Notes: generated by a model not told the origin, from the letters alone. 64,000 nucleotides of DNA from a virus (IMGVR_UViG_3300031867_000001:96001-160000); one strand, 5' to 3'; counted from the stretch's first letter, positions 11,101 to 54,190 are shown. A program made the numbers and translations.

Positions 11101-12502
11101 ATGTTGTTGTCAAGTGTAATGGTTTCAGTGCCGATGGTTTTGGTACATCATTCACAGATGTCAATTTATCAAACGTCACGTTGTTCAATTTCAATTGACC
11201 AATTTGATTACGCAACTTTTCTTCACGTGGGTTGGTAATTGTTCGGTTTACGTCCTTGACATCTGGTGCGGACACCGAATTCTCAATCTTCTTGGATGCT
11301 TGTTGAATCAATTGTTTTTCAACCGAATTTGCATCTACTGGTGTGATATCATCTGCCAAATGTTTATAAGAATTCACTGCAGATGTATCTGGATTAATCT
11401 TCTGCATTAATGACGCATTGATGTCAAATGCTTTGGCGGCATACAATTGTTGCTTGTTGGAGACTTTGTTTGTTAAATCTGTATCATCAACTTCATTCAA
11501 TTCCGAATCCGTATTCTTATGATTCATGGAAATCTTTTCAATGGAAGCTTGTAATGATTTCATAACCGACTGATGGGAATTCTGTAAAGATTGGATATCC
11601 ATGTCCTTTTCAGAAATCTTAGTACCATCATTCGATGTCTTCTCAACCGTTTCTTTTTGTTTAACGATTTCATTTGCTGCAACAATGTTTGCATCTTCTT
11701 CTGGGGTTTCTGCCAATTCATTCTTCTCTTCATCCGTTGATACATCTTCTTCTGATTCTTCTTCATTGGATGTATTCACAGCCGCTTCCACACCAAACTT
11801 ATTCAGCATAGAACGAAGACGTTGGGCATCGTTCTTATTGAATTGACGTAAATCAAACTTGTAATCAGCATCACCCGTTTTGAAAATGATTGTATATTCC
11901 AAATGTGGAAGTTTGGATTCGCTCAACAATAAGTATGCACAAACCAATCCATTGATTAAGTCATATTGTAACATATCCAATGTTGGATTTTTATAAATCT
12001 TAACACGCTTTGTGTCTACAACAATGACTTTTCGTTTTAATCCAAATGCAAATGGACGAATGATGTCACCAAATACTTGGAAGAAGTTATCTTTCAAATA
12101 TCCAATACTAAACTGATGTAGTAACTGATTACCTCGTTTCATCAGTTCACTCATACTAACATACAAGTTTTCTGATACTGTAGATGGATATGGATAACGA
12201 AGCATTGTCAATCGTGGTTGCAATGTTTTATTCTGTTGATTTAAATATGCAACCTTTTTCGTATATTCAGATTGTTGAATTAAGTATCTGAATGGACGAC
12301 CACCAATCTTTGTGATCAATCGATACGGTATTGCAAACACTTTGTAATCTGTTTTTGGTTGTGGTATATTGCGAATTAATTCAATATCATATTCAAATGA
12401 ATCGGTCGCTAACATAACCACAACACCTTTCTTCTCCTGTGGAAGACGGAGTCGTTGTGGGATCGGAACATAAGATCCAGCTGAATCCATATTAATAGCC
12501 AA
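8180..12502 (-). CDS. rpoB: Phage multisubunit RNA polymerase beta-like subunit, N-terminal/main part (probably virion RNAP)
   Basis: Beta motifs: NPMVELHARETISKKGFRG (cf. NPLSEITHKRRISALGPGG), SPNSGNVGIARQL (cf. TPEGPNIGL), YSTYEDSGVM (cf. YNFEDS), VGDEVEIGDPL, GDKLTNYSCMKQICSEVIP...APSSILKRM (cf. GDKMAGRHGNKGVIS...NPLGVPSRM). The protein ends before the beta C-terminal region and has a long N-terminal extension. Start taken as TTG 12502 after AAGGAG (track: GTG 12511). Confidence 0.93.
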   Translation of the reverse strand: MAINMDSAGSYVPIPQRLRLPQEKKGVVVMLATDSFEYDIELIRNIPQPKTDYKVFAIPYRLITKIGGRPFRYLIQQSEYTKKVAYLNQQNKTLQPRLTMLRYPYPSTVSENLYVSMSELMKRGNQLLHQFSIGYLKDNFFQVFGDIIRPFAFGLKRKVIVVDTKRVKIYKNPTLDMLQYDLINGLVCAYLLLSESKLPHLEYTIIFKTGDADYKFDLRQFNKNDAQRLRSMLNKFGVEAAVNTSNEEESEEDVSTDEEKNELAETPEEDANIVAANEIVKQKETVEKTSNDGTKISEKDMDIQSLQNSHQSVMKSLQASIEKISMNHKNTDSELNEVDDTDLTNKVSNKQQLYAAKAFDINASLMQKINPDTSAVNSYKHLADDITPVDANSVEKQLIQQASKKIENSVSAPDVKDVNRTITNPREEKLRNQIGQLKLNNVTFDKLTSVNDVPKPSALKPLHLTTTSRPALRATGFTNIAKEYEDKLMDRDIVATLMTLSKPSDGFYVTNVEVTDISTCVSMLNNWKVSLKNKQSGLTSTVNIVVPKMLNGRYYYNGTWYSIDKQEFPIPVLKIDPKTVMITSNYNKITVARYDTKSLVDVSAMLKTVNKLEDANGKNRYIKPGSSVNSNAHYISTIEYDEYAKVWYSFTNREQDCEIVFNRNECLKMWQFVAVNANEFCCGMINKVPVIVNTETGLTRQGITITETILQMLPPDVQQAYIKTKPGKTSMYSTIKIGNTVPLGVAICAWEGLNSLLKNSNCKYKIVDQRFRDPHYIVFNFKDKAIAIENTIGNQLLFNGLYRINTKAYNIEEFETPIMESNSIYVDIFNQLFFTQYSQLTTFITYYNFFMDAITHDVCNHYNLPNTLIGLLIYSSNLLVDNSAMSENNAALYRVRSSEIIPAMIHYHLAVAMSNFNNRTGSRARANKLQFNPNCIMKELTDTQTIKCLTALNPMVELHARETISKKGFRGVNNDRAYTEARRSFEDSMVGKLAISSPNSGNVGIARQLVADPKIESVRGYTSTDGIDANYDDLQLASFSELLTPGSVSRDDAIRTAIGTSQTSHTVSTADAQPVLISNGMDEIVPAYLTEQFSVMAEEDGTVIELNEGYMIVQYKSGKKKAINIDHKYAFNDGGGFYVDNKLTPNYQAGDKFKRGEILAYHEKFFSKDSTGQVRMNVGPLAKVAFMGCYSTYEDSGVMTTKMSKRLATKVTMCEIIKLDCTEDIEKIVHVGDEVEIGDPLLVFGLGNTGDKSVDNFLRAFGGDEESFKRTIDAKHAGTIVDVRMYTNKAMDKLSPSLYNILNGYFTANKKKRKILDKYDKSNAVYKLDTLFSLPTEPLKTPSLKGINTDVLIEVYIEHEDDMSVGDKLTNYSCMKQICSEVIPEGLEPYAESTPDEEISVFQAPSSILKRMVPSVVVTAAGNKVLVNLKRQVKDLWENS

Positions 12503-12539
12503 TATTATCACTCCTTAAAAATGAAAGTGGGGGATTTTT

Positions 12540-14846: not shown

Positions 14847-15875
14847 TTACCAATCTAACTCGTCATCACCACCACCAGACGATGAAGTATCATTCGTGGT
14901 TGTGGTTGGCTTTGTAACTTTTTTGACATTCTCTTTTGCTTCTGCAGCAGCACGTGAATCATAGTGTGCGATTTGAGCACGCAGATTCTCCATCTTGATA
15001 TTGTACTTCTTCATGTTCTGAACATACTTAGATTCAACCTTCTTCTGACGATTGCTTTCAGGAATCTTCATATATTCATCATATGCTTTCTTAGTCTCTT
15101 CAAATAATGTCTGTGTTGCATAAAAAGCATTTACTTTCTTATCATAATGACTGGTCAGTACATTATTGATGAAAGACACGGGATTGAATTGATCGAACTT
15201 ACCAAAGATCCAATCCAACAATTCATTTGTATCATGAAGCCACTCCTTGGCAGACTTCTTGGTTAACCAAGATGCAACCTTACCGACGGCTGTTCCAATG
15301 AATGTAAGTGATGCATCTTCTTGCATATACATATCTTCCATATAAGACTCTTGCTTGAGCTGAAGCGCTGATTTATTACTCTTGGAATGTTTCCGAATAT
15401 AATCGTCCACTTCCTTCTCAATGTTCTTATTATATGCTTTGATGAATTTAATCGCGGATTCTTTCTGGGAGATACGATTTGGTTTATAAACCAATCCCTT
15501 CTCCGTTGCAGTTGTGGAAGCATAGATTCTTGACAACTCAGCAACCAATACTCGATATCCACATGTGAAGAGAATTGTAAACATGATGTTTCTTTCATTC
15601 TTCTCATGTAAATATTCATTCACCATCTGCTTATAAATGGGACGATGGATTGCATTGAACATGTTATTCAACAAACTACGTTCGTTACTTGGATATCCTT
15701 TCAAGACACTCAAGTTTGCGAGCATCTCCTCAATGCCATGATACATCTTGGACTTGGTGATGTCACCACGCATCTTGTATTCATCACTACTCTTATTGGA
15801 ATAAATGTGATCAAGTTCCACAGAGAATGCAACGATCTTCTCTTCGTAACTTGCATTTTTATCAAATAAAGGCAT
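14847..15875 (-). CDS. Probable virion head protein (342 aa)
   Basis: SD GGAGGTG; central LKQESYMEDMYMQEDAS cluster matching the putative prohead-protease motif. Confidence 0.6.
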   Translation of the reverse strand: MPLFDKNASYEEKIVAFSVELDHIYSNKSSDEYKMRGDITKSKMYHGIEEMLANLSVLKGYPSNERSLLNNMFNAIHRPIYKQMVNEYLHEKNERNIMFTILFTCGYRVLVAELSRIYASTTATEKGLVYKPNRISQKESAIKFIKAYNKNIEKEVDDYIRKHSKSNKSALQLKQESYMEDMYMQEDASLTFIGTAVGKVASWLTKKSAKEWLHDTNELLDWIFGKFDQFNPVSFINNVLTSHYDKKVNAFYATQTLFEETKKAYDEYMKIPESNRQKKVESKYVQNMKKYNIKMENLRAQIAHYDSRAAAEAKENVKKVTKPTTTTNDTSSSGGGDDELDW

Positions 15876-17907: not shown

Positions 17908-18486
17908 TTATACGCCCTTATATAGTTTCATAGACTTTTCCAATTCCTTGGGGATTTTATCCATGAATGTAATAGTGACTTCCGTTCTTGGAGTTTTGGA
18001 ATAATACTTATGTGATTCCAAGTCACATACGATACAGTCATCAATCATGACACCTTTATGACCACGCTTCTTATTACCGACAATACTATCCATAATACTC
18101 TTTTCGAAATTATCCAAATCTCCACATCTTGTCCACGGACGTATGATTTTCATTTCAGCCAACATCTTTTGTGTTTTCGTAAATGAAGTTGGTGTATGTA
18201 CAAATAAATCAATCTTCATTTTACATGGTTTATCGATCCATAAACCACCAAGCTTCGGTGCAACTTCTCGAGAAAAGAATGCTGTATTTTTAGCAGCTCC
18301 AGGAACGTAGATTCTGTAACCAGATAACCGAGGACGTTGAGATGGTTTTGGTTCACGATTGATTGTAAACTTAACAGTTCTCCAACTGATCTTAGAAACA
18401 TAACCAACTGCACGCGCAACATTACACAGAACGGAGTCGGAAAGTTCCGACTCCATTTGTTTTACATTTTCATGATTGATGTCCAT
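17908..18486 (-). CDS. rusA: RusA-family Holliday junction resolvase
   Basis: EPKPSQRPR, DLDNFEKSIMDSI, DDCIVCD and KYYSKTPRTEVTI match the RusA signatures (DxDNxxKxxxD...DD). Start after GGAG at 18486 or 18492. Confidence 0.85.
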   Translation of the reverse strand: MDINHENVKQMESELSDSVLCNVARAVGYVSKISWRTVKFTINREPKPSQRPRLSGYRIYVPGAAKNTAFFSREVAPKLGGLWIDKPCKMKIDLFVHTPTSFTKTQKMLAEMKIIRPWTRCGDLDNFEKSIMDSIVGNKKRGHKGVMIDDCIVCDLESHKYYSKTPRTEVTITFMDKIPKELEKSMKLYKGV

Positions 18487-18505
18487 TATCATCTCTCCAA
18501 TTTGA

Positions 18506-19777
18506 TTAGTTTGCATAAATTCTGTAATCAATCAGAATTTCGAAATTGTCTTCAAGTGGAATGGAATTGAATGTATAATATGTGATGAGCTTGATTCGTT
18601 GTGCTTCGGAATTTGTTAATGCAGCGATTGATGGATCGGAAGTATCATTTAAATATGTCATGAACTTATTGGTTTCATATTGATACTCGCCACTCTGATT
18701 ATAGAATGCATTTACTTCAATATTGGTTTCCTTTGAGAATTCAGTCTTCAATGCATCATAGTCAAGTGTTGACGGACTGATGATGTATGTTGAGCAAGCA
18801 TTGTAGAATGCATTCAGATTCGGTTGAGATACAGTAAATGTCTCATGGAATGCTTCATCAAATGTTGCAAGAATTGTGGATGCATAAGATTTGATTCTTG
18901 TTGCTGCATCACTGGGTCTGTTATCATCATAAATGAGTGTGATCATTTCCACGACAATTTTCTGATAAAGTGTTTCCAACACATCACGAGTTCCAAGTGT
19001 TGTATCAAATGCAACCAATCCAAGTTCATTCAGCATTGCTGTTTCTGTATTACCAGCTGCTTCAAAATATGCTTTACAATCAGATTCATCGATTGATAAT
19101 TTGCACTCTGCATATGTCTCAATACGATTTGTCTTGGGTTGACCGTTCGTTGCATTTGGACCCAAATCGGCAGTCTGTACTGGATCGATATAATTCCACT
19201 TCTGTCCATCTACCCACCAAGAATGATAGATGTGTGGAAGTGCATCAAATTTCTTAATATAGTAAGACTTGATAGATGATGAAGTAGAACGATATATACC
19301 ACAATACTTATCCGCAATAGTTGGATCAATTGAAGAAGCGACTTGCTGGAACGGAATTGGTGAACGAAGATTGATGAATGAATAATTCGTATTCTTAGTT
19401 GTGATGGAATCTTCTGCACCACCACCATTACCAACCATAAAACCGCGAATGAAGAAGTTCTCAGCAATGTCAGATTCCATTGCAGTATACTGTGTTGGTG
19501 ATACACCAATACCCATCAATTCATTTAAATCGGGCATTGCCAAATTTGTATCACGACCACGATTGTCCGTATGAGCAGTTGTATGATAGGAATCCAGATA
19601 TAGATTAAAGATCTTCATCAAGATTGTTTGCATTCCAGAAATCGAAATGACATTATCACCTTCATCCCAAAATGAAACTTCGTTTGTGTTTTTATTTCTG
19701 CGATAAATTGTGATATGACCATGTAAACCACATGCTTTATCATTCAATGTAATCGCATCTTTGATATGCATATCCAT
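18506..19777 (-). CDS. Probable tail/baseplate structural protein (423 aa)
   Basis: G-h-h-x-I..N-x-I N-terminus, FMVGNGG, LNELGLVA and C-terminal IDYRIY pattern seen in phage tail/baseplate proteins; in the fibre operon. Confidence 0.55.
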   Translation of the reverse strand: MDMHIKDAITLNDKACGLHGHITIYRRNKNTNEVSFWDEGDNVISISGMQTILMKIFNLYLDSYHTTAHTDNRGRDTNLAMPDLNELMGIGVSPTQYTAMESDIAENFFIRGFMVGNGGGAEDSITTKNTNYSFINLRSPIPFQQVASSIDPTIADKYCGIYRSTSSSIKSYYIKKFDALPHIYHSWWVDGQKWNYIDPVQTADLGPNATNGQPKTNRIETYAECKLSIDESDCKAYFEAAGNTETAMLNELGLVAFDTTLGTRDVLETLYQKIVVEMITLIYDDNRPSDAATRIKSYASTILATFDEAFHETFTVSQPNLNAFYNACSTYIISPSTLDYDALKTEFSKETNIEVNAFYNQSGEYQYETNKFMTYLNDTSDPSIAALTNSEAQRIKLITYYTFNSIPLEDNFEILIDYRIYAN

Positions 19778-20839: not shown

Positions 20840-21241
20840 TTAACCACCAACCTTATCGAGAATTGCATGGATAAGATTTAATGTATTAACTCCTTCATTC
20901 GTTGGTTCTGGATCACCTGATTGAATTCTGGATACTGCTGAATTACATCTGACCCATTCGATTGGTCCATATGTTGAAGCTGGGTTTGCTTTAATTGTAT
21001 TACCTGCATAATACACGCCCCAACCCGCATCTTCCGAAACTTTCGGAATGGCAATCAGTTGTCCAGCATCATTAAATTGTAAACCATTATTATCTTTACC
21101 GGATAATTTTAATGCAAATCCATGTTTTATTGTCGGTTCTTCACCTTCAACTTCTGATGGGATTGACATCTCTTTGCATTCGATTGTTTGTGGATTATAT
21201 CGGAGATTGATATCGTACCGAACATTCCCACGAATTTCCAT
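20840..21241 (-). CDS. Small tail-fibre-associated protein
   Basis: ORF track, coupled to neighbours; LKLSGKDNNGLQFNDAGQL fibre-type repeat. Confidence 0.55.
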   Translation of the reverse strand: MEIRGNVRYDINLRYNPQTIECKEMSIPSEVEGEEPTIKHGFALKLSGKDNNGLQFNDAGQLIAIPKVSEDAGWGVYYAGNTIKANPASTYGPIEWVRCNSAVSRIQSGDPEPTNEGVNTLNLIHAILDKVGG

Positions 21242-21771
21242 TAAAAATCATCTCCTCCACCTAAAAGCAATGCAACTTCTTCGATTCTATCATTTGCATC
21301 TACTTTCGTAATGATGTAATAATTGAACTTGTTATCAGCCACAGGAACTCGCAGAAAATCTCCAGGTAGTATCTTATCCAAGTTTTTTTCATCTGCTGGA
21401 GCACCATCGTTACCTCTGAATGTATCGGATGGATTTTTACCACGTAAATGGGTTCCATACATATCATCCGCAGTCCATGTTCTGTGAGTAATTCCGTTGC
21501 AAGAAACACGTGTTCTGTTCTTTCCCTCTTGATCTAAATCCCATTGAGAACGATATCCAACTCTGACACCACCATGAATCTGGGGAGTGTCAAGTTGTTT
21601 ACCAACTGACGCTGGATCTCCTTCTGAATATAAACCATCTTCTTCAACGGTGATTGTATTATGTTCATCAGTAGAAATCTTCACATTCAATCGATGTTTT
21701 GTCTTCCCATCTTCTTCAAATGTTTCTATTTCTAATAAATTTGGATCAATGTTCAATAACACTTTTGCCAT
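21241..21771 (-). CDS. Small tail-fibre-associated protein
   Basis: SD GAGG; LNVKISTDEHNTITVEEDGLY fibre-type repeat; TAATG coupling to the next gene. Confidence 0.55.
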   Translation of the reverse strand: MAKVLLNIDPNLLEIETFEEDGKTKHRLNVKISTDEHNTITVEEDGLYSEGDPASVGKQLDTPQIHGGVRVGYRSQWDLDQEGKNRTRVSCNGITHRTWTADDMYGTHLRGKNPSDTFRGNDGAPADEKNLDKILPGDFLRVPVADNKFNYYIITKVDANDRIEEVALLLGGGDDF

Positions 21772-28412: not shown

Positions 28413-31400
28413 TTATCCTCGTGCTAAACGAGTAACTTGTTCTGGTATTGCATTAACCGATTCATCAACTGGCTTTTGTGGTGTTACGATTGTTCCTTCT
28501 GGATTGGATTTCATTGAATCGAGCTTCTTGGAAATGTCTTCAAGCAATTGCTCAACCTTTTCTGCTCGAACATTGAATGTGATCTTCTCCAGATCTTCAA
28601 TCGTATACGCCTTATCATTGTTCTGACCAGCGACAATGTATTGGTTCACAATTTGAGATTGTGGTTCACTGTCATAGTTATCGTAGAACTGTTGAATTGC
28701 TCCTTCATTGATTGGTGGAATATCACCACTACCAAGCACTCTCGCAGCCCATTCCGTTACTGAGCTTGCTTGTCCATCACTCCAACCATAGTTCGATTGT
28801 GCATACGATGTTGAAGTATTCGATTGTTTATTGCTCTTGGGTTTTGAACTCGGTTGTGTGTTTGTTTGTTTTACGCCACCAAATTTAGAAGCATACCACA
28901 TTGAGAATTCTTGACTGTTGTAACCGCCATTGTACTCGGTTCTGTAATAATCTGCCATACGTTGATTTGTAAGATAAGCGTCCCACCAACCAGTCGGATT
29001 CTTACCATAACGAGTTTTAGCGGACCATTCAGAAGCATGTGAATCAAAGAACTTTCTCCACTGTGCTTTCTGTCTGGAATCAACTGCAGAATCATATGCG
29101 GTGTAATAATTCTCATCGGTTGTACCAGGAACAATTGTCGACGATTCTTCTTCCTCACTCGTATCATCAAATGAAGACGAACCACTGTAGGATGATGTTG
29201 ATGTTTGTGCATATGCACCAGCACTATTTGCCATTTGTCTTGCAAACAGACCCATCAATGTTTCTGCATCACCAGTAACAAATGATTGTTTACCATAGTT
29301 ACCCTTGAGATAGTTCTTGAGTTTATGACCAGATGTTGTATCACCAACTTCAATTGCACCCATCAACGAATTACCGATGCTTCCAATACCAGCAGCAATT
29401 TCGTCCATGACTTCTTCTGCAGTACCCTTGATGATTTGAACACTCTTCTTCTTACCGTTATACAGAACTTGGAATTCTTGTCCAGCTGTATCGAATACAG
29501 AACCCAAGAATCCAGTTCCACCTTCAAACAGTGAAGAACCCATGTCTTGAAGTGTCTGTGCAACTCCATCTTCACCAATTTCAGATGCTTCTTTAATTGC
29601 ACCACCAACACCTTCAGAAATAGAATTCAAACCTTCCTTAGCACCATCCAACCAGGTAGAGATAACATCACCAATTGTGGTTGCATTATTCTTTAACAAA
29701 TCATACAATCCAGCTCCAATTGTTCCGTTAACACCAACCGTTGTATCGATTGCTGTGGTTACAGCATTCTTTGTTGCATCACTAAGAATGATTTTCGTTC
29801 CTGTCTTAAGCAGATTGGATATCATTCCACTCAATGGGTTGTGACCAGTTAATGTTCCTACAACTGTATCAATTGCCTTACCGCCCAATTTAGAATCGAC
29901 AAAGTCTGTAACTCCATGTCTTGCTGTATCTGCAACTGCTTCAACTGTATCTGCGATTGCAGAACCCTTATTCATCAAACCAACTGCAATTGTTCCAACA
30001 CCTGGAGCAAGCTGATTTAATGCGGCTTCGAATGCTGCTTCCAATACAGGAGATGCAGTAAGATCCAATTTAGCAGAATCCAACAACGAACGAACACGTG
30101 GACCAATTTGTCCAGCAGTAGATCCACCACCATATGATGAACCACCACCAACAGCAAGTCCATTCTGCACCATCCAGTTGTATACATCTGCTGCAGTACC
30201 GACGTATTTGCCAAGACCCTTAGGCGTTTGCCATCCTTCAGGTACAAGTGCACCACCAACATAGTGAACACTACCTTCAATGAGATCCCGATCAATGATT
30301 GGTCCAATTGGATCACCAACATTACCAGTGGCTTCATGTCCAGCCAATGTCTTAAGCGCATTTGCATAACCAGACAGGTTATTACTGATACGACCTCTAC
30401 TACGAGAAGGTTCTTGACTGAAGTATGCTTGTGAGATATAGTTAAGCTGTTCCGACAATGTAGAACCGTATTCAGTGGATTCAGTTCCACCAGACTTCGG
30501 AATCCAGTTCATAATACCAACGGCACGTTGACCATTATGATCAGTGGTTACCTTAGTAAGACTCTTTTGACCAGTCAGCTTCTTAGCATTATCCTCCCAG
30601 ATACCAGTTGCCATAATCAATGCTTGTTGAGCAGGACTCATGCCAGCTTGCTGTGCTGCAGTAAAGTATTCACGAATTCCTTCCTTGTCCTTATACTTAT
30701 CCCACGTTCCGTTGTAGTATGGTGAAAGTGTTGACATGTCAATTGCACCTTGTGCTGCACCAGAAGAAACAGCTCCACCAGTAGTCGTACCAGTAGTCGT
30801 ACCAGTAGTCGTACCAGTAGACGATGCATTTGTAATGTCATATGATGAAGTACCAGCTCCACCAGCACCAACATAACGGATTGCACGAGTGTAATAGCCA
30901 TGACCGTTAATCTCACCCTTGTTGTTCTTGGTGGCTGTAAATGCATCTGTGCCATTATTGAGCATTTCATTAACAGCAGCAAGTGCACGAGCCATACCAC
31001 CTTCCCAACCATAGGAGAAGCCATAGACCTTATTGTTTTCAACACCAGATACAATCTCACCATGGTGGTTTCCACCTTTATAGATGATTGCAATATCACC
31101 ACCTTGGAGTGATGAAAGTTCTGGATTATCAATAAATTGCCAATCCGGTGAGATATTACCAGATGCGTCTTTAATTCCCTTAGCGGAATTAAACGAAGCA
31201 GAGTTCATACCTTCAGAGTTGTAACCCATTGCATCAATGACAGAATCACACAGTCCCGTACAGTCAGGACGTTCACTGAATGTCTGACCATTGATTGTGA
31301 GCTGATGTGTTTTACCGCTTTGATTGTAATCTCCATCCTTACCAACAACTCCGACCGCTTCATATGCTTTAACAACTGTCGGGACGGTTCCAAGTACGGT

Positions 31401-34400
31401 TCCACCATTTCCACGGTAAGAACCACCGCCTCCCCATCCACCAGCAGATTCAGCAGTATCCATTTGAAGTGCATGTAACAGATTGGATGCAAGATTAATA
31501 GCACCGCCAATGAATGTACCAGTTGTTGGATCATATGTACCATACAACTGAGCAGCATTCTCAGCAATTCTATCACCAGTCTCAGCAGCAGATTCCATAT
31601 CAAGATCAAGAACTTTATACTTACCAACATCAACGATGTATTCGAGTTTGTGTTTGTTCCATCTTTCCAGATATTCAGATGGAGATTGGTTACCTTGAGG
31701 ATTCTTGGCACTCCACTGTTTGAATGCTTCACGTTCAACTTCACGAAGTTCAGTGGTGGTAAGACGTTTCTTGATTTCCTTATACGTAGATTCAAGTTCT
31801 GCCTTCTTCGAAATGGATTCCGCATCATCATCATCGAAATTGAATATGTCAAGGAGTCCACCAGCGGTTTCTCTCAACTCATCGAACAGATCTGACAATC
31901 TATCATCGAATGGTGAATCACCGGATCCATACAGACCCATCAATGCACCAGATGCAATATCATTTGCAGAACGTCTTTCGATTCTTCCAGTCAATGGATT
32001 GGAAGTATATGCAATTCCATTCTTTGTACCAAGTACATTCACGTAGTGTGGAGATGTGGATCGTGTTCCAAATCCACTACCGGATCCAATGACTGTGATT
32101 GGATTGTTTGGTGTTGCACGATGCAACGATGTAGTTGTAACACCACCAGGTGTATACCCAATACCCATCGCACTTGCGGTATTAAGGAACCCAGATACAG
32201 ATGTTCCACGTTTGGTAGAATAATTGCCGGACGCATACATTGCCGAAGTCAACGAACGTGGATCAACACGTGAACCAGTTCTACGTGATGCAGCATCAGC
32301 AAGTGCGATTGGACCACATCCATGTTTTGCCATGTTGAGATATGTTCCATACGAACCTTGATCACCTGAACCATATGTTCCATCCAGATTCATTCCATTT
32401 GTTGGCATTCTGTCTGGCAGTGTTGTCTCAGTCGTATTGGGTTCAGTTTTCTTCTTAGTAGGATTATCCAGACCCATCATCATCAATGTACCGTTGACGG
32501 TATTATCGATACCCTTGTCGATAATCTCCAATCCAGACAATGATAACTTTTCACCAGTTTTCTCAAGTGCATTGTTTCCGGTAAAGTGTGCTACTAATGA
32601 ACCGATTCCTTCAATGACAGTACCAATCGCATGTAAATTATGTCCAAAGCCCATCTCAATCGCACCAAGAATGGATTGAATTAAACCAATACCAGTCTTG
32701 AGCTGTTGAACGAATGTGCCAACAAAGAATTTAGCAGCAGACATCTGAATCTTGATGAGAGGCTCCATCAATTCCCAGAACGGTTGTGCAATATCAAATA
32801 TCATATCCGTAACGACTGTTACAAGATTACCCAATGCTTCACCGATCTCTTCTGCGTATGGTAACATTTCATCCATGAATGGTTCAAACTGACTAAAGAA
32901 CTGATCAGCCAATTCACCATACTTTTCAAAGTAATCACTTAATGCATCAAGAATTGGTTCAAGAATCTTGACAATTGCTTCAAGTCCCTTGGTGATATTT
33001 GCAATAACCGATCCAAGCATCTTTGCAAGACCACGTACAATCTTTGCAACCATTGTTGCGAGTGATGTTAATGTCTTGGAAATTGCATTGATCAATGGTT
33101 TCAGTGTCTTTGTCAGATCCTTGATCAAATCATTGATTGGTTTCAGACCCTTTGTCAATGCTTTGGAGATTAAATCGAGCAATGTCTTGGTTGCAGCCAT
33201 GGATGCAATCACTGTCAACAGTATCTTTGTGATACCCATTAATGCAGAACGGATACCTTTTCCAATCAGCGAAATTGCACCAATTCCGGTTGCAGCAGCT
33301 GCGGCTCCTGCACCTGCTTCAGCACCTACAGTCGTTGCGCCAGCTTGTACTGTACCACCAACAGTTGTTGTGGCATTTGCCGGAATAGGTGTTGGTGGCG
33401 GTGTTGGTGTGCTATTTGCCATGTAGAATCCTTCTGCGCCAGTTGTTGTAAATGTCGTTCCACCAGGTTGCATTTGTGGAGTACCAATACCAGTGTTTTG
33501 TGTTTTAACAGTTGATGGTTGTTCTTTGGCTTTATTATCAACTGATTGTTTTACTTCCCCCACTGCCTCAACAACCTCTTCAATACTACCCTCTATTGAA
33601 GAAATATGTTCTTCCAATGTTTCGTCGTTTTCCTCATCTTTTTCATCCATCTTGTTAACGATACTGGTCTTTGTTGATTGAATACCTTCAACAACTTGAA
33701 CCAATAAGCCATTGATATTTTGAACGTCCTCCCTGATATTAGCCGTATCTTCTTTTACTTGGACGGATGTTTCTAACTCACCAATTCCTTCAGATTCTCC
33801 TGGATGAAAGAAGTTGGAAACTTTACCCTTGATGTCAGATATCTTATTCTTGGCTTTGGAATACAAACCATGTGTTGCAACATCGAGTAATTGACCAGCT
33901 CCTTCTTTGATCATTTGTCCACCGGCTTTAACATCCTTAACACCACTGGACAATCCCTTCTTGATCAATGCCAATGCGGGTTTGAATAATACACCAAGTA
34001 TTCTGGTGACTGGAGCGAGTAATGTTGTTATAGGAGCGAATAATGTTTTTGCACCACTGAACAAACGAGACACAATACTCTTCGGTTTTTCCTCTTCTTT
34101 CTTGGAACCAAGTGTTTTACCAATCTTGGAAACCAAATCACGAGCACGTGTCTTGTAATCAGCATTCTTAAACGAATTGGAGAGTTGGTTTAAGACATTA
34201 TTATCTTCAGCAATGTCTTGGTCTGATACAGCAGCTGTCATACCGGTCTGGAACATCATCATGTCCATGAGAGAATCATTGACATTGAATTTAGTTCCAC
34301 CAGTTATGTCTCCGCCATTTGTATAACTAATTCCATCTGGTAGTTGGGGAGGGTCGTCTGACGATGAATCACCACCACCATCAGATGCATTTTGTTGAGC

Positions 34401-36479
34401 ATGTGAACCACCGCTACGTTTCTTGACGGTGAATCTTTGCACAGGACGTTGATGATTGACTGGAGCTGCTTGAATTGGCATGTCAACAACAGTTGTTTGG
34501 ATAGATCCAGTCTTCAGAATCGAAAGAATATCAGCCAATGAATCAGTGACGGATTTTTGATAAGCCATCATGGTTTTGTTTGGTTTGAACAATGTTGTGT
34601 TTTCTGTTTTGATTGTGGTTTTACCACTTAAGATACCATATGCATTTTCAATATCATTTTTAAATTGCTCATTCGTATCACCATATTCATTTGGATTTAA
34701 TTTCCGTTCCAATTCGTCAATAAGCTTCTTAAGCTGTTTCTCTTCATCACGTTCTTCCTTGGTTCTCTTTCGTTGTGATGCAAGTTCATCAATACGATAT
34801 TGTGCTGCATTCAATTGATTCATCAAACCGATTCGTTCTTTATCAGAGAAGAACTCATCAAATGCATCTTGCATTTTGCCATTATGTGCAGTTCCGAGAT
34901 TCTGGATATTGGAAGTATTCTGGGCATGCTGGGTTAACATTGTCACTTGCTTTCCCAATGCTTCATTGATTGATGCAATGAACTCGGTTAATCCACCACC
35001 ACCAAGTGTTGAATTACCAGACGCAATAAGGACCATGAAATATTGGTCTACTAAGGAAGCCCAATACGACAAGTTTCCACCATTTGTTTTTTGTAAGAAT
35101 TTCGCAACATTGGATTTGATATCATCGCGATATGTTTTACTACGAACAATGTTTTCGGTCATTCGTTTTAAACCATTATTCTGTAACCATATCGTTGATC
35201 CAGCAACAACCAATCGTCCGATTGTATCCAACTCTGTATTGTCAATATCAAGTCTGGTTAACAATTCATTTCGAACTCCGCGGTTGACAACACCACTACC
35301 CATCGACTGATAAGATGATCGAACGACTTGCTTGAAGTCATTGACTTGAATACCTGAAGACAACGTACCCATTTGTGTGACATGATAATTCTTACCAGTT
35401 AATGCTCCAGCAATTACTCTCAAATATTCTGGGATAACAGTCACAATGGATTGACGTGTCATGTTGTCGAATATTGCACGTTCTTTGTTAAACGTGTTTT
35501 TTGCCATATATTTGTAATCGATATTACCTTCTCCAGCATTGATATCAAACTCGATTAAATCGGATAACTTATTAAATACTTTAGAATCAAATATGCTGGC
35601 AATGGATCTGGATATCATATTACCAATTCCACGATTCAATTCTTGACCAAGTTCATCAATCGATCTACCACCGAATTTTGCAATACCTCTATTTTTCAAA
35701 TCACCGAGTGGAGTGATATCAATAAGACCACTGATCAATTGTGCGGGTGAAACTTGCTCTTTAACCAAATCGGCTATTTGAACACCTGTTGACAACAATG
35801 ATTCGTCAATCATTTTCTTGAAACCTTCTGAGAAAGATTTCAATGTGAATCTACCTTCATCATTCAACATCGAATCATATTGATTCACTGCTTCTTGATT
35901 TTGTTGAATACCCAGTGATTGTAATTTGATTAATGCATCTAATTTACCATCGATCTTGGTTAACGTATCATTCGTTGTTCTGAGTGCGGCAGTAATCAAA
36001 TTTGTTTGATTAACGATTGTCGTTTTGATTTCGGAAATGTTCATAATGGACGTTTCAGCTTGCTTACCAGCAATCTTATACATCGCATTGACTTGTCCTT
36101 TGGCAATGTTACGAATTTCCTCTGTATCTTGTTTTACCTTTGTAACAGATTCTTCTTCGCCATTATCATCATTGACTAATTTGAATCCGGCATCAAAATC
36201 GGATTCAGAATCATCATTATCGAAATCATACTCACTTGTCGAATCAGCACTACTATAGAACCAATCGACAAATTTCTTCATACCATTCTTTCGTAAATCG
36301 GTAAATACTTCTTTAGCAGTATTCTTACCACCATTGAGTTGATTACCAAGCTCTTGAGCATCTGTCTTCAGTTGACTGATGTTTTCAACATATGGAGATG
36401 CTTGCAGTTTAAATACTTCTCCAACAATCTTTGCAGTTTGCATTGCAAAATTACGATTGTTTTTGTTTTTATTTGGCAT
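28413..36479 (-). CDS. Tape-measure-like tail protein with C39-like peptidase, NlpC/P60-like endopeptidase and phage-tail-lysozyme-like domains (2688 aa)
   Basis: Long helical region with amphipathic repeats; GCGPIALA...HYVNVLG...SNP (C39-like); RPDCTGLC...GDIAI...HHGEIV (NlpC/P60-like); AGMSPAQQALIMATGIWED...GIMNW...LSEQLNYI (tail-lysozyme-like). Confidence 0.75.
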   Translation of the reverse strand: MPNKNKNNRNFAMQTAKIVGEVFKLQASPYVENISQLKTDAQELGNQLNGGKNTAKEVFTDLRKNGMKKFVDWFYSSADSTSEYDFDNDDSESDFDAGFKLVNDDNGEEESVTKVKQDTEEIRNIAKGQVNAMYKIAGKQAETSIMNISEIKTTIVNQTNLITAALRTTNDTLTKIDGKLDALIKLQSLGIQQNQEAVNQYDSMLNDEGRFTLKSFSEGFKKMIDESLLSTGVQIADLVKEQVSPAQLISGLIDITPLGDLKNRGIAKFGGRSIDELGQELNRGIGNMISRSIASIFDSKVFNKLSDLIEFDINAGEGNIDYKYMAKNTFNKERAIFDNMTRQSIVTVIPEYLRVIAGALTGKNYHVTQMGTLSSGIQVNDFKQVVRSSYQSMGSGVVNRGVRNELLTRLDIDNTELDTIGRLVVAGSTIWLQNNGLKRMTENIVRSKTYRDDIKSNVAKFLQKTNGGNLSYWASLVDQYFMVLIASGNSTLGGGGLTEFIASINEALGKQVTMLTQHAQNTSNIQNLGTAHNGKMQDAFDEFFSDKERIGLMNQLNAAQYRIDELASQRKRTKEERDEEKQLKKLIDELERKLNPNEYGDTNEQFKNDIENAYGILSGKTTIKTENTTLFKPNKTMMAYQKSVTDSLADILSILKTGSIQTTVVDMPIQAAPVNHQRPVQRFTVKKRSGGSHAQQNASDGGGDSSSDDPPQLPDGISYTNGGDITGGTKFNVNDSLMDMMMFQTGMTAAVSDQDIAEDNNVLNQLSNSFKNADYKTRARDLVSKIGKTLGSKKEEEKPKSIVSRLFSGAKTLFAPITTLLAPVTRILGVLFKPALALIKKGLSSGVKDVKAGGQMIKEGAGQLLDVATHGLYSKAKNKISDIKGKVSNFFHPGESEGIGELETSVQVKEDTANIREDVQNINGLLVQVVEGIQSTKTSIVNKMDEKDEENDETLEEHISSIEGSIEEVVEAVGEVKQSVDNKAKEQPSTVKTQNTGIGTPQMQPGGTTFTTTGAEGFYMANSTPTPPPTPIPANATTTVGGTVQAGATTVGAEAGAGAAAAATGIGAISLIGKGIRSALMGITKILLTVIASMAATKTLLDLISKALTKGLKPINDLIKDLTKTLKPLINAISKTLTSLATMVAKIVRGLAKMLGSVIANITKGLEAIVKILEPILDALSDYFEKYGELADQFFSQFEPFMDEMLPYAEEIGEALGNLVTVVTDMIFDIAQPFWELMEPLIKIQMSAAKFFVGTFVQQLKTGIGLIQSILGAIEMGFGHNLHAIGTVIEGIGSLVAHFTGNNALEKTGEKLSLSGLEIIDKGIDNTVNGTLMMMGLDNPTKKKTEPNTTETTLPDRMPTNGMNLDGTYGSGDQGSYGTYLNMAKHGCGPIALADAASRRTGSRVDPRSLTSAMYASGNYSTKRGTSVSGFLNTASAMGIGYTPGGVTTTSLHRATPNNPITVIGSGSGFGTRSTSPHYVNVLGTKNGIAYTSNPLTGRIERRSANDIASGALMGLYGSGDSPFDDRLSDLFDELRETAGGLLDIFNFDDDDAESISKKAELESTYKEIKKRLTTTELREVEREAFKQWSAKNPQGNQSPSEYLERWNKHKLEYIVDVGKYKVLDLDMESAAETGDRIAENAAQLYGTYDPTTGTFIGGAINLASNLLHALQMDTAESAGGWGGGGSYRGNGGTVLGTVPTVVKAYEAVGVVGKDGDYNQSGKTHQLTINGQTFSERPDCTGLCDSVIDAMGYNSEGMNSASFNSAKGIKDASGNISPDWQFIDNPELSSLQGGDIAIIYKGGNHHGEIVSGVENNKVYGFSYGWEGGMARALAAVNEMLNNGTDAFTATKNNKGEINGHGYYTRAIRYVGAGGAGTSSYDITNASSTGTTTGTTTGTTTGGAVSSGAAQGAIDMSTLSPYYNGTWDKYKDKEGIREYFTAAQQAGMSPAQQALIMATGIWEDNAKKLTGQKSLTKVTTDHNGQRAVGIMNWIPKSGGTESTEYGSTLSEQLNYISQAYFSQEPSRSRGRISNNLSGYANALKTLAGHEATGNVGDPIGPIIDRDLIEGSVHYVGGALVPEGWQTPKGLGKYVGTAADVYNWMVQNGLAVGGGSSYGGGSTAGQIGPRVRSLLDSAKLDLTASPVLEAAFEAALNQLAPGVGTIAVGLMNKGSAIADTVEAVADTARHGVTDFVDSKLGGKAIDTVVGTLTGHNPLSGMISNLLKTGTKIILSDATKNAVTTAIDTTVGVNGTIGAGLYDLLKNNATTIGDVISTWLDGAKEGLNSISEGVGGAIKEASEIGEDGVAQTLQDMGSSLFEGGTGFLGSVFDTAGQEFQVLYNGKKKSVQIIKGTAEEVMDEIAAGIGSIGNSLMGAIEVGDTTSGHKLKNYLKGNYGKQSFVTGDAETLMGLFARQMANSAGAYAQTSTSSYSGSSSFDDTSEEEESSTIVPGTTDENYYTAYDSAVDSRQKAQWRKFFDSHASEWSAKTRYGKNPTGWWDAYLTNQRMADYYRTEYNGGYNSQEFSMWYASKFGGVKQTNTQPSSKPKSNKQSNTSTSYAQSNYGWSDGQASSVTEWAARVLGSGDIPPINEGAIQQFYDNYDSEPQSQIVNQYIVAGQNNDKAYTIEDLEKITFNVRAEKVEQLLEDISKKLDSMKSNPEGTIVTPQKPVDESVNAIPEQVTRLARG
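30777..30820. repeat. 12-bp tandem repeat (ACCAGTAGTCGT x3.7) encoding a TTTG linker
   Basis: Directly visible; lies between the NlpC/P60-like and lysozyme-like domains. Confidence 0.9.
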
Positions 36480-40437: not shown

Positions 40438-42585
40438 TTACGGAGTGTTGCCGCCGTCAGTACCGGAACCATCATTCTCAGTAGCGTCAGTGGTAGTAAC
40501 CAGACCCGCCTTGGAATCAGGAACGAGAACAGTATTCTTGAATACGATTCTACCCTGGATGCCCTGGATAGCAATGGTCTTGTACTGTGCAGAAGTAGTT
40601 ACATATACTGCTGCACCACCCGGATTAGCTGCATCTGCATATGCTGCATTCTCAGGAGAGTTCGTCAGGTGACGAGCGAATCTGAGGTGCTTGTAAGAGA
40701 TGTGGAACTTATCCATCGGGTAAGCCACGATGTGGTAGAAGTACTCACGAGATACATCGGTCTCCTCAGTATTCTCCTGATATGCTGGAATGGTGGTGTA
40801 TGCATCAATTCTGTTAGAAGCAACTACACGTACCGGAGTCTCGAAGTCAGTCATAACGCCGAAGCTGTGGTTCATCTGAACACCACCGATCTCGGTGCTC
40901 TTCTGTACAGTCCAAGTTACGAACTTCTGAATCAGACGGATAGCCTTCGGGTTACCGTATACAACGAAACCAAGGTTCTCCAGCTTGCCTCTGTCACAGA
41001 GCTCATAGATCAGAGATGCGAGAGAGTTGTGAATTGCATTGGTTCTGTACTCCCAAGGATCACCAGCAAAGTTCGGAGACAGTGCGGTCGGATCCATATC
41101 AACATACTCAGTATGAGTGTAGGACTCCAGAGCCCATACGTCGGAATCATAACCGTCGTACTTATCAAACTCCTCATCGAGGAACTCGAGAATGGATTCG
41201 TCCTCGAACATCTCCTGAGCAGTTACGAGCTCCTGAACGAGTCTGTTGTAGAGGTTGAAGTTCAGAGAAGCGTTAGCCTCAGCAAAGTCCTCAACAGTGA
41301 ACGGAAGCTGGAAGCGGCAACCATCAGAAATGAGGAACTTACGGATTTCCGGATACTCACGGAAACCGATGGTTCTCATGTTGGTCTCGTTGGACATACG
41401 ACCATTGATGTAGATACCATCAATCGTGCCGCAAGAAGATGCAGTTACATAACCCTTTACAAAGTCAACGATACCACTCAGTCTGTCTGCAATACCAGTA
41501 ACAGTCTTGCCAGTAGGAAGACCAGTAGCCTCATCGATAATAGCAAGCTTCATATCCTCAGTGATACCACCGTTCAGGAATACACCACCGTTCTGGATAT
41601 CAATTGCGATACCGCCGCCAGGGAGCTTAACCTTAGTACCAGTAGAACCACTCTCTTCGCGAGTGTAGTAAGTACCAGCTACGAACGTCTCAGGTGCAGG
41701 AGTACCCTTATCATCTGCATAGTAACCAGTAGGCCAACCTGCCGGCTCAGTATCAAGAGTTACTGCGGTGTAGGTGTAAGTAGGATCGCCACCCTCAGCG
41801 ATGTGAACGAACTGGATGTTGAAATCGTAAGAAAGACGAGCTCTGAGATTCTCCTGACGATTGAGAGTCATGGGGTTGCCATTGTCATCAAGCAGCCAAG
41901 TGAAGATGTCGAACTTCTTGTTCGGGGAGTTCTTGATAACATCAAGAGAGAGCATTGCCTCATTGATTCTGTAACCCTTACCAGCGTTCCACAGCTTCTT
42001 CCACAGCGGCTTACCATCAGTATCCTTCTTGAAGTAGATAGCCGGAGTCTCATACTCTTCATTGGTCTGGTTGTTTACCAGATACTTGGTGAAGATTCTC
42101 TGTTCAATGTTGGTAGAAGATGCAGTCTGTACCGGAATAATCTCCTTACCCAGGAATCTGATGTACTGCTTAACCAGTGCCGGGAAGTCCAGAGTAGACA
42201 GCGGGAGATAGTTGGAAACGTTATAAGACTCTTGTACCACGAAGGACTTTACAGAAGAATCCCATGCAGAATCGAGCTGATCTGCAACCTGCTCCATATG
42301 CATTCTCTCTGCATCTGTCTCAGCAGGATAAGAACGAAGCTCCTCAAGAATCGGATCAAGCAGAGTAGTCTTATACTCAGTCATGATCTCGGGGTTCTCA
42401 AGCATTCTCTTAGCATCAGCCATTACGTTGACGCCGTATGTATGCTTAAGATCACCAACGGTCTGCTCAAACCGAGAATCGAAATTATCACGGAGACCTC
42501 TGAGTTCATTATCAGCCAGGCTGTTGATCATTGCCTGCTGTTCCTGGAACCAAGTTCCATGTGTAGCATTACGTGAAAAAGCCAT
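40438..42585 (-). CDS. Major capsid protein precursor
   Basis: 715 aa; strongly biased high-expression codons; last gene of the protease/scaffold block; helical propeptide ending at FVVQE-S; FVVYGNPKAIRLI and C-terminal QGIQGRIVF typical of HK97-fold jumbo-phage capsids. Confidence 0.85.
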   Translation of the reverse strand: MAFSRNATHGTWFQEQQAMINSLADNELRGLRDNFDSRFEQTVGDLKHTYGVNVMADAKRMLENPEIMTEYKTTLLDPILEELRSYPAETDAERMHMEQVADQLDSAWDSSVKSFVVQESYNVSNYLPLSTLDFPALVKQYIRFLGKEIIPVQTASSTNIEQRIFTKYLVNNQTNEEYETPAIYFKKDTDGKPLWKKLWNAGKGYRINEAMLSLDVIKNSPNKKFDIFTWLLDDNGNPMTLNRQENLRARLSYDFNIQFVHIAEGGDPTYTYTAVTLDTEPAGWPTGYYADDKGTPAPETFVAGTYYTREESGSTGTKVKLPGGGIAIDIQNGGVFLNGGITEDMKLAIIDEATGLPTGKTVTGIADRLSGIVDFVKGYVTASSCGTIDGIYINGRMSNETNMRTIGFREYPEIRKFLISDGCRFQLPFTVEDFAEANASLNFNLYNRLVQELVTAQEMFEDESILEFLDEEFDKYDGYDSDVWALESYTHTEYVDMDPTALSPNFAGDPWEYRTNAIHNSLASLIYELCDRGKLENLGFVVYGNPKAIRLIQKFVTWTVQKSTEIGGVQMNHSFGVMTDFETPVRVVASNRIDAYTTIPAYQENTEETDVSREYFYHIVAYPMDKFHISYKHLRFARHLTNSPENAAYADAANPGGAAVYVTTSAQYKTIAIQGIQGRIVFKNTVLVPDSKAGLVTTTDATENDGSGTDGGNTP

Positions 42586-45963: not shown

Positions 45964-46842
45964 TTAGCTCCTTCCACGCAGAATATTCATTGCCTCTCTG
46001 TAAGTATCTCCCTTCAACGGAACAGCGATTCTGGAACGATCATGAGAATCAATAATGATATTACCATTTGCAATACCAGTGATCTCGTCCATAGAAATCT
46101 CAAAGGATTCCATAATGACGTTCATACCCTCATCCTTGTCTGCACAATACTGAGCCAACTCCTGTAAGAATACAACACGTCCATATCCATTCTCATCACC
46201 TTCAAGATTCATCTGATATGACTCATTGAAACTACGTGGAGTGATGTCTGCATTCGCATCATGATGAGACGGGAAGTTCACACAGTCGAATGTGATAACC
46301 TTATTGACTCTGATGTTGGGAGAATTCGGACGTGCATTCGGAATCATATTTCCAAGTAAACGAACAGAATACGATGGTACGGCACCCTGATCAAGAATCA
46401 ATGAGGCAACATACTTACCAGCATCATTTGTTGCTTGTGTGGTGATATGACCCTTGTAACGATCACCCTCCAGTCGGGGTTTGGAAATGTATGAACAAAT
46501 GTTCAATGGCTTTGGGATTGTCATACGGATGTCACTCAATTGCTCCCCTTTATTTAGAGGCGATGGATGATCCAGCTCTTGACCCCATTTGTTCTGTCTT
46601 AAGAGAGTCTGGATTCTTTCATCATTGTCGATACATGAAACAAGGTTTTGTGCATCATATCGACGTCCCATTCTGTTATAACAATTGAATGTCTGGAGTG
46701 TTGCATCAAATTCAACAATCGGTGTACCAAATGCGGATTGACGAACCGTGTATCCACCGGGTTTCAGTTCAGAAGACTGTGGAGACTCTTGGATGAAACA
46801 CGCTGTTTCGTACTGATTCGTTTGAGTACTCTTTAACGGCAT
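45964..46842 (-). CDS. Prohead core protease (T4 gp21-like serine protease)
   Basis: NRMGRRY, GQELDHP (His), PSYSVRLLG (Ser) and ITFDCVNFPSH (Asp) match gp21-family motifs. Confidence 0.9.
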   Translation of the reverse strand: MPLKSTQTNQYETACFIQESPQSSELKPGGYTVRQSAFGTPIVEFDATLQTFNCYNRMGRRYDAQNLVSCIDNDERIQTLLRQNKWGQELDHPSPLNKGEQLSDIRMTIPKPLNICSYISKPRLEGDRYKGHITTQATNDAGKYVASLILDQGAVPSYSVRLLGNMIPNARPNSPNIRVNKVITFDCVNFPSHHDANADITPRSFNESYQMNLEGDENGYGRVVFLQELAQYCADKDEGMNVIMESFEISMDEITGIANGNIIIDSHDRSRIAVPLKGDTYREAMNILRGRS

Positions 46843-54126: not shown

Positions 54127-54190
54127 AAAAATAACTCCTTCCTTATTTAATATACACTTAAAGTGTTTATGATTTCCGTTGGACAAAAAA

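Follow-up and report, generated by a model that had tools for sequence, protein, structure and literature searches.

Does a phage tail protein with a built-in peptidase cut itself into pieces? The question is raised by a gene on the minus strand of a 64,000-nucleotide stretch of viral DNA (IMGVR_UViG_3300031867_000001:96001-160000), the whole of which is referred to here as the window. The window is part of the complete 250,503-bp record of an uncultured jumbo phage with direct terminal repeats, and the gene encodes a tape-measure-like protein of 2688 amino acids, designated P0001 (homologues are given handles of the same form). The original prediction for this sequence was that a C39-like peptidase domain, bracketed exactly by Y-G-S-G-D motifs, makes P0001 a possible self-processing tail polyprotein. 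From comparisons of sequences and structure models, we put the probability that P0001 is a self-processing polyprotein cut by its own C39 peptidase at G-x-G-D motifs at approximately 0.6. The features central to this reading are listed below.

28413..36479 (-), gene for the tape-measure-like virion protein P0001, 2688 amino acids (open reading frame)
32361-32375 (-), site 1, Y-G-S-G-D, amino acids 1369-1373, TATGGTTCAGGTGAT, directly before the invariant Gln1374
31926..32372 (-), C39-type papain-fold cysteine peptidase domain, amino acids 1370-1518 (from fold, alignment and Pfam matches in homologues)
32358-32360 (-), candidate catalytic Gln1374
32316-32318 (-), candidate catalytic Cys1388, in GCGP
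32046-32048 (-), candidate catalytic His1478, in HYVNV
31998-32000 (-), candidate catalytic Asn1494, in SNP
31917-31931 (-), site 2, Y-G-S-G-D, amino acids 1517-1521, TATGGATCCGGTGAT, at the C-terminal end of the peptidase
28722-28736 (-), site 3, L-G-S-G-D, amino acids 2582-2586, CTTGGTAGTGGTGAT, 105 amino acids from the C terminus

All three motifs were found in the sequence where they had been predicted, with the serine encoded by TCA, TCC and AGT at sites 1, 2 and 3, respectively. As three different codons are used, the repeat is one of protein sequence and not of DNA. The tetrapeptide GSGD occurs three times in P0001, starting at amino acids 1370, 1518 and 2583, against 0.147 expected from composition (Poisson P of about 5e-4). 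Across a set of 197 greedily chosen open reading frames (ORFs) covering the whole genome (76.5 k residues), GSGD was found 3 times against approximately 1.06 expected, and all three copies are those in P0001. A relaxed form of the motif was found 10 times against 6.5 expected, with 4 of the 10 inside P0001. As regards substrates that might be cut in trans, no other ORF of the genome contains GSGD, and matches to the relaxed motif outside P0001 are at chance level.

The domain between sites 1 and 2 had been called C39-like, and it was found to comprise a complete C39-type papain fold with an intact Gln/Cys/His/Asn set (reference families for C39 and C39-like peptidases were those of MEROPS clan CA and Pfam PF03412, PF13529 and PF11814). 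Gln1374, Cys1388, His1478 and Asn1494 are invariant in an alignment of 36 diverse homologues (alignment A1), and the GCGP motif is present in all 228 representatives examined. P0001 contains only three cysteines, Cys1388 in GCGP and Cys1740 and Cys1744 in the RPDCTGLC sequence of an NlpC/P60-like domain described below, so that every cysteine lies in a predicted active-site motif. When the 36 homologous domains were compared with Pfam, counting matches at E values of up to 1, 22 matched Peptidase_C39_2 (best E of 8.8e-8) and 8 matched Peptidase_C39. A search of PDB sequences with a profile of the domain returned only a spurious repeat match to a lectin.

An AlphaFold2 model of the domain, built on the alignment, had a predicted local distance difference test score (pLDDT) of 83.7. 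The best Foldseek matches, with E values of 5e-6 to 9e-4 overall, were the peptidase domains of PCAT1 (5.5e-6), ComA (ComA PEP; 1.1e-5) and LahT150 and the toxin Cpe1, which ranks second. Using VIA-align, the model was superimposed on ComA PEP (5xe8) with a Z score of 15.9 and a root mean square deviation (rmsd) of 2.2 Å over 127 amino acids. The alignments to ComA, PCAT1 and LahT span model residues 21..170, corresponding to amino acids 1370-1519, with the first G of site 1 and the S of site 2 as the end points. This is the whole segment between the motifs, and the description "bracketed exactly" is therefore accurate. Judged by its invariant residues and its modelled fold, the domain is a catalytically intact C39-type peptidase, and the enzyme looks active. 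Co-folding of the domain with the site 3 segment gave a score of 0.18 against a mark of 0.32, which counts neither for nor against binding.

A word-indexed search for relatives of P0001 returned 108 homologues of 1750-3770 amino acids, and an exhaustive profile search of 1.84 billion cluster representatives returned 141 at E values of up to 1e-30, nearly all of them 2200-3700 amino acids long with the C39 domain near residue 1350-2100. More than 200 homologues of 2200-3750 amino acids were found, from contigs of up to about 300 kb. GSGD occurs 280 times in the first 109 proteins, with 17 copies expected, and each of the 11 alternative arrangements of these four residues is present 10-44 times; in 201 full-length representatives it occurs 509 times, with 32 expected. 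Positional counts were made in these 201 representatives, which are phylogenetically related, and the counts are not independent events: G-x-G-D lies no more than 62 amino acids upstream of the C39 domain in 165, the domain ends in YGxGD in 194 (YGxG in 200), G-x-G-D lies 90-150 amino acids from the C terminus in 182, and all three positions are filled in 155. The suggested check of G-x-G conservation at the domain borders of homologues thus finds the motif at the same three positions in most of the set.

All of the 108 first-round homologues contain G[LI]YGSG, the D that follows being replaced by N in five and by P in three. Towards the C terminus, 76 of the 109 first-round proteins have a GSGD 99-133 amino acids from the end, and 78 have one within 200 amino acids; the remaining sites are mostly GNGD, GQGD, GAGD, GGGD or ASGD at the same place. 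When 25 site 3 regions were aligned, the only invariant columns were the two Gly, the Asp and one Pro downstream, with a mean column identity of 26%, and the distance from site 3 to the next conserved block, IPPI(D/N), varied by 0-30 residues. An invariant G-x-G-D within variable surroundings and at variable spacing is characteristic of a short functional linker motif rather than of a folded element. The recurring motif is therefore conserved as had been proposed, with the correction that its core is G-x-G-D (x being mostly S) preceded by a hydrophobic residue or Tyr, rather than YGSGD as such.

The middle residue of the motif is tolerant, and some proteins have changed it in concert at all of their sites: P0227 carries GNGD four times and lacks GSGD, and P0172 carries GAGD three times. 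In P0229, two GNGD stand beside a single GSGD. Beyond the main family (E values of 1e-11 to 1e-19; proteins of 2500-4750 amino acids), a C39-like domain with GCGP and the His is still present. Here, P0239 contains GGRG five times (amino acids 3478, 3685, 3934, 4119 and 4573) against 0.155 expected, with copies immediately on either side of the domain; in P0240, G(R/H)GR..GRG(S/T) precedes the domain, follows it and recurs 570 amino acids downstream (amino acids 1874-1880, 2032-2037 and 2606-2612); and P0237 has GHGSGE twice (amino acids 1916 and 2871). Apart from unannotated faecal contigs, a search with the domain of P0239 matched only an Enterococcus phage, at 23% identity. The simplest explanation for these patterns would be one common reader of the tag in each lineage, and the embedded peptidase is the only candidate that always travels with the tag. 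We give about an even chance to the broader proposal, that there is a large, hitherto undescribed clade of gut and rumen jumbo phages with a polyprotein tape measure, in which a dedicated C39-type protease, cutting between the second G and the D of G-x-G-D, excises itself, parts the ruler from a wall-degrading cargo of several enzymes and removes a tip anchor of roughly 110 amino acids, and in which protease and site co-evolve from lineage to lineage. Such a clade would comprise at least 141 clusters at 50% identity, plus the distant lineages with tags of their own.

Some relatives depart from the common arrangement. A second, N-terminal C39-like copy with GCGP intact (amino acids about 590-860) is found in the subfamily formed by P0012-P0017, P0023 and P0121-P0127. 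P0112 and P0098 end 38-65 amino acids after site 2, both at contig ends and one with an overlapping downstream frame; this stop shortly after the C39 domain (L001 12958-13596 and L002 13271-13305) may be a real split of the gene or an assembly error. Further short representatives, with starts within the tape-measure region, are apparently fragments.

Additional occurrences of similar motifs were also considered. A GGGD at amino acids 701-704 of P0001 (34366-34377, minus strand), within the acidic linker SDGGGDSSSDD, was a candidate for a fourth site; it is missing from P0002 and P0004, which are 95-97% identical to P0001, and was therefore not counted and is probably not a site. In the GxGD intramembrane aspartyl proteases, the GxGD lies in a transmembrane helix and is paired with a YD motif in a neighbouring helix. 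An assignment of this presenilin/prepilin peptidase type was rejected, as all three motifs of P0001 are in polar linkers with no membrane segment. Outside the window, an 803-amino-acid protein (G000:C1:211500-213911, minus strand) contains LGAGDTPPIS, which is similar to LGSGDIPPIN at site 3 (BLAST E of 0.75, not significant). Two small ORFs among the structural genes of the window, at 14847-15875 (-) and 21241-21771 (-), have GGGDD near their C termini (amino acid 334 of 342 and 171 of 176, respectively); as the relaxed motif is at chance level genome-wide, these may mean nothing.

Downstream of the peptidase, the region between sites 2 and 3 and the part beyond site 3 contain the following.

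30858..31412 (-), NlpC/P60/CHAP-fold cysteine peptidase domain, amino acids 1690-1874 (from fold)
30153..30698 (-), lysozyme-like domain of the phi29 gp13 tail-lysozyme type, amino acids 1928-2109 (from fold)
28416..28724 (-), predicted acidic C-terminal piece of 103 amino acids, 2586-2688, starting DIPPIN and ending ...IPEQVTRLARG

An AlphaFold2 model of amino acids 1690-2200 (pLDDT of 80) contains two well-folded domains. The first of these gave VIA Z scores of 9.3-10.0 to trypanothione synthetase-amidase 2vpm, the CHAP endolysin LysIME-EF1, MepS and the NlpC/P60 protein 3h41 (structures 2vpm, 6ist, 8xud and 3h41; model residues 1-185), and its Cys1740, His1806 and Glu1808 are invariant (alignment A3). 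The second matched the phi29 tail cell-wall-degrading enzyme with Z scores of 8.8 (3csq, over 139 amino acids) and 8.2 (3csr), although a Z score of about 8 is middling and can reflect a common arrangement. Foldseek gave weak matches of this domain to MltC, MltE and Slt, and the homologue P0005 matched PF18013 below threshold (26.2 bits against a cut-off of 28.2; E of 1e-5). Neither domain had a significant Pfam match in P0001, and searches of PDB sequences with profiles of the two domains returned nothing. The predicted wall-degrading module of NlpC/P60 plus lysozyme is thus supported by fold, more firmly for the NlpC/P60-like than for the lysozyme-like domain. Homologues add M23, amidase_2, CHAP and SH3 domains. 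No extra G-x-G-D was identified between enzyme domains in the multi-enzyme homologues looked at, such as P0018, and the motifs therefore delimit four blocks of the protein rather than single enzymes. The extreme C terminus (amino acids 2677-2688; 28416-28450, minus strand), with the pattern ...IPxQVTRL(A/S)xG, is common to divergent relatives including P0133, P0151, P0182 and P0185, and by analogy with other tape measures this conserved end may plug into, or anchor in, the tail tip.

The designation of P0001 as tape-measure-like comes from its N-terminal half, in which two regions were distinguished.

34680..36479 (-), conserved N-terminal domain of the P0001 family, amino acids 1-600 (phmmer matches in most homologues)
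32490..34208 (-), tape-measure-like helical/hydrophobic region, amino acids 758-1330 (PHROG matches and hydropathy scan)

Amino acids 758-1330 match PHROG 6090 and 1272 (tape measure) and 1204 (tail protein) with E values of 3.4e-10 to 1.4e-7, and the only strongly hydrophobic segments in P0001 are at amino acids 813-839 and 1078-1104. P0001 thus combines similarity to tape-measure families with a long helical and hydrophobic region. The conserved extreme C terminus helps this assignment, and we infer that P0001 is a tape-measure-like protein, which would sit in the tail lumen.

To our knowledge, no protease is known for the maturation of the tape-measure protein of either lambda or T5. In T5, the tape measure pb2 is cleaved after R1127, between the hydrophobic stretch and the muralytic domain, and the lambda tape measure is also processed (gpH to H*); the T5 structure paper names no protease for the cleavage of pb2 (PMC10038345). 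Site 1 of P0001 lies about 40 amino acids after the tape-measure-like region and site 3 about 105 amino acids from the end. The cuts in T5 and lambda, after the hydrophobic stretch and before the muralytic part, and about 100 amino acids from the C terminus, fall at the places of sites 1 and 3, and the positions thus parallel these precedents. Unlike P0001, which has the enzyme and three to four copies of the site motif built in, pb2 and gpH have neither a protease domain nor a repeated site motif.

In P0001, then, the putative site motif found on both sides of the embedded protease is repeated at other module borders and kept in relatives. With a built-in C39-type protease framed by G-x-G-D in more than 200 relatives, P0001 is probably cut into four pieces. 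The embedded endopeptidase, acting through Gln1374, Cys1388, His1478 and Asn1494, would cut the precursor at sites consisting of a hydrophobic residue or Tyr followed by G-x-G-D, and the most likely scissile bond, by analogy with double-glycine peptidases, would be that after the second Gly (between G and D). The enzyme may cut its own flanks in cis, and copies lying side by side in a tail may cut one another in trans. The predicted products are a tape-measure body (amino acids 1-1372; 149 kDa) that would end just after the hydrophobic stretch, a free peptidase (amino acids 1373-1520; 15 kDa, isoelectric point of 10), an undivided wall-degrading module carrying the NlpC/P60-like peptidase and the phi29-gp13-like lysozyme (amino acids 1521-2585; 113 kDa), and an acidic piece whose conserved end would probably anchor in the tail tip (amino acids 2586-2688; 12 kDa). 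The original prediction of self-processing thus stands as far as the intact C39 fold, the conserved motif and the confinement of that motif to P0001 are concerned; the cleavage, the enzyme responsible, the bond and the timing of the cut are what we infer from them.

Comparison with known systems places the domain closest to the C39 domains of PCAT and AMS proteins (ComA PEP, 3k8u/5xe8; PCAT1, 4ry2/6v9z; LahT150, 6mpz). The papain-like fold is common over the whole domain (Z scores of 14.3-15.9, rmsd of 2.2-2.6 Å, 126-133 aligned residues, 18-21% identity), as is the arrangement of Gln, Cys, His and Asp or Asn, and the substrates of the PCAT/AMS enzymes likewise have tiny residues at the cut site. 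In P0001, Asn replaces the Asp of the triad, and Gln and Cys are 14 residues apart. Whereas the PCAT/AMS domains are fused to transporters and act on leader peptides, that of P0001 lies midway along a 2688-amino-acid phage virion protein, in which no ATP-binding cassette (ABC) transporter domain was found and which does not have the N-terminal fusion of the PCAT/AMS type. The sites also differ, the PCAT/AMS leader being amphipathic and ending in GG, GA or GS and the presumed site of P0001 being G-x-G-D, with Asp on the prime side.

C39-like folds outside transporters are found in the toxins Cpe1 and CdiA-CT (StbD type; 9l5u, 8ssk and 8ssm), with Z scores of 12.7-13.6 to the P0001 domain. Cpe1 (9l5u) cuts folded GyrB and ParE between LHAGG and KF (PMC12136450), so that C39-type enzymes can process large proteins at Gly-rich sites and not only leaders. 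These toxins act between bacteria, are paired with immunity proteins and target host topoisomerases, whereas the best candidate substrate of the P0001 domain is its own carrier. The same precursor logic, a built-in protease flanked by its own sites, applies to the CPD of MARTX toxins, to 3C, Mpro and PLpro of RNA viruses and to the polyvalent proteins of phages and plasmids; for the last of these, which have zincin-like MPTase domains, autoprocessing is only predicted and no site motifs were described (Iyer et al. 2017; PMC5512222). P0001 differs in that its protease is a C39-type cysteine peptidase rather than a zincin, CPD or chymotrypsin-like enzyme, in that the carrier is a tape-measure-like tail protein, and in that the motifs mark off four blocks only, without parting one enzyme domain from another. 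Full-text searches of the literature found neither a C39 peptidase nor a G-x-G-D motif described for a tape-measure protein.

Genes surrounding that of P0001 were examined for further context. The window also encodes several virion structural proteins, and the neighbours of the P0001 gene are mostly unannotated; upstream of it are a virion structural protein, the major head protein and the prohead protease. Identified features were as follows.

8180-12511 and 50422-51171, multisubunit RNA polymerase pieces
40438-42585, major head protein
45964-46842, prohead protease homologue, 9.5 kb upstream of the P0001 gene (phrog_3014, E of 2e-13)

The sheath family PF04984 had no match anywhere in the 250.5-kb genome. 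As the neighbours have diverged too far for a tail module to be defined and no sheath family matched, the term tape-measure-like rests on the sequence of P0001. Three further genes stand among or are interleaved with the structural genes: a RusA-like resolvase at 17908-18531 (-; E of 3e-24), the extra piece of RNA polymerase beta subunit at 50422-51171 (-; E of 3e-43) and an endonuclease at 53380-54186 (-; E of 2e-41).

A number of observations weigh against self-processing. Pfam recognized in P0001 itself only DUF3335 (C39-like), below threshold at 17 bits against a cut-off of 25 (E of 0.004), and the relatedness of the 201 representatives has been mentioned. Immediately before the C39 domain GSGN is found in 99 of 228 representatives against 39 of 228 for GSGD. 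Every protein returned by a search with amino acids 1-620 also has the C39 domain and the motif; with no protease-less homologue found, loss of the protease could not be correlated with loss of the motif (P0011 lacks both domain and motif but is a different protein). Comparison of amino acids 1300-2250, and of the C39 domain, with 50,697 phage records using tblastn gave no usable match and no cultured relative, and the literature searched contained no proteomic or cleavage data on the P0001 family. At site 2, L-Y-G forms the canonical last beta-strand of the C39 fold, with S-G-D opening a low-confidence linker in the AlphaFold2 model, and the paralogous N-terminal C39 copies, of which there are 22 in the set, end in GL(Y/F)GxG followed by R, P, I or D. 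Since L-Y-G is the last strand and is kept in the paralogous copy without the Asp, conservation at site 2 is partly structural, and P-side residues within the folded domain would be hard for a protease cleft to reach. Lastly, the C39 domain adjoins wall-degrading domains, and PeiR, one of the pseudomurein endoisopeptidases of methanogen viruses and proviruses (PeiR, PeiW and PeiP), ties with ComA PEP for the best structural match (VIA-align Z of 15.9, 134 aligned residues), so that a processing protease and a wall peptidase are not distinguished by the fold.

The domain might accordingly be a third cell-wall peptidase of a tail-tip lysis module, with the G-x-G-D motifs acting as, say, hinges or docking elements. 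The virus-derived, wall-lysing context of PeiR agrees with this, as do the position of the domain directly upstream of the NlpC/P60-like and lysozyme-like domains, the M23, amidase_2, CHAP and SH3 domains added in homologues, and a GLYGxG end that is intrinsic to the domain, being present in the paralogous copy as well. Mycobacteriophage endolysins are also reported to carry C39-like N-terminal peptidase domains. PeiR shares 13% identity with the P0001 domain, acts on the isopeptide bond of pseudomurein and has no recurring motif at its flanks. A wall peptidase would leave unexplained the same tetrapeptide at two positions outside the domain in variable linkers, the concerted change of x within one protein, and the recurring G-x-G tags that distant lineages have around their own C39-like domains; moreover, the Pfam matches go to Peptidase_C39_2 and Peptidase_C39, and the nearest sequence-like folds are Gly-Gly endopeptidases. 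We regard this explanation as unlikely, and the wall-peptidase and processing roles are not mutually exclusive. Rather more doubtful is the possibility that the motifs stay uncut, G-x-G-D being a conserved hinge or turn, or else an element that binds, for example, a tail chaperone or the tube lumen, so that bulky globular domains can pack between extended tape-measure segments. Gly-rich tetrapeptides are typical of linkers, P0001 being 10.7% Gly with 38 G-x-G, and site 2 is in part a structural strand plus turn, but an ordinary linker would not keep G, G and D invariant across proteins of 25-40% identity amid variable surroundings, nor would it favour one ordering of four residues 16-fold over the eleven others. 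It is improbable that G-x-G-D is cut by another agent, whether the prohead protease, a host protease or non-enzymatic self-cleavage driven by Asp or Ser, while the C39 domain targets, for example, a host protein after ejection. A prohead protease homologue is indeed encoded 9.5 kb upstream, the P0001 gene adjoins head genes and not a recognizable tail module, the tape measures of T5 and lambda are processed without an embedded protease, and Cpe1 shows that C39-like domains can target host proteins. Nevertheless, neither the major head protein nor any other ORF of the genome contains GSGD, the relaxed motif shows no enrichment outside P0001 (the 10 against 6.5 expected include the 4 in P0001), and every family member carries a C39 domain with an intact Cys. 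The residue after the Asp is unconstrained (Q, S or I), which is a misfit to Asp-Pro-type chemistry, and if a host enzyme were responsible, it would need to be conserved in the hosts of over 140 sequence clusters.

As P0001 carries both a plausible enzyme and an explicit, conserved site motif, the question of tape-measure cleavage becomes directly testable. Were the domain a wall peptidase instead and the motif uncut, a smaller finding would remain, namely an unusually rich lysin of the tail tip whose conserved linker has no explanation. If P0001 does process itself, its peptidase would be the first protease identified for the maturation of a tape measure, and double-stranded DNA phages would be making a virion machine by the polyprotein strategy that RNA viruses use. 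The C39 family would then extend from leader-peptide removal and toxins to virus assembly or entry, and P0001 could provide a compact site-specific protease of 148 residues with a short, defined recognition tag.

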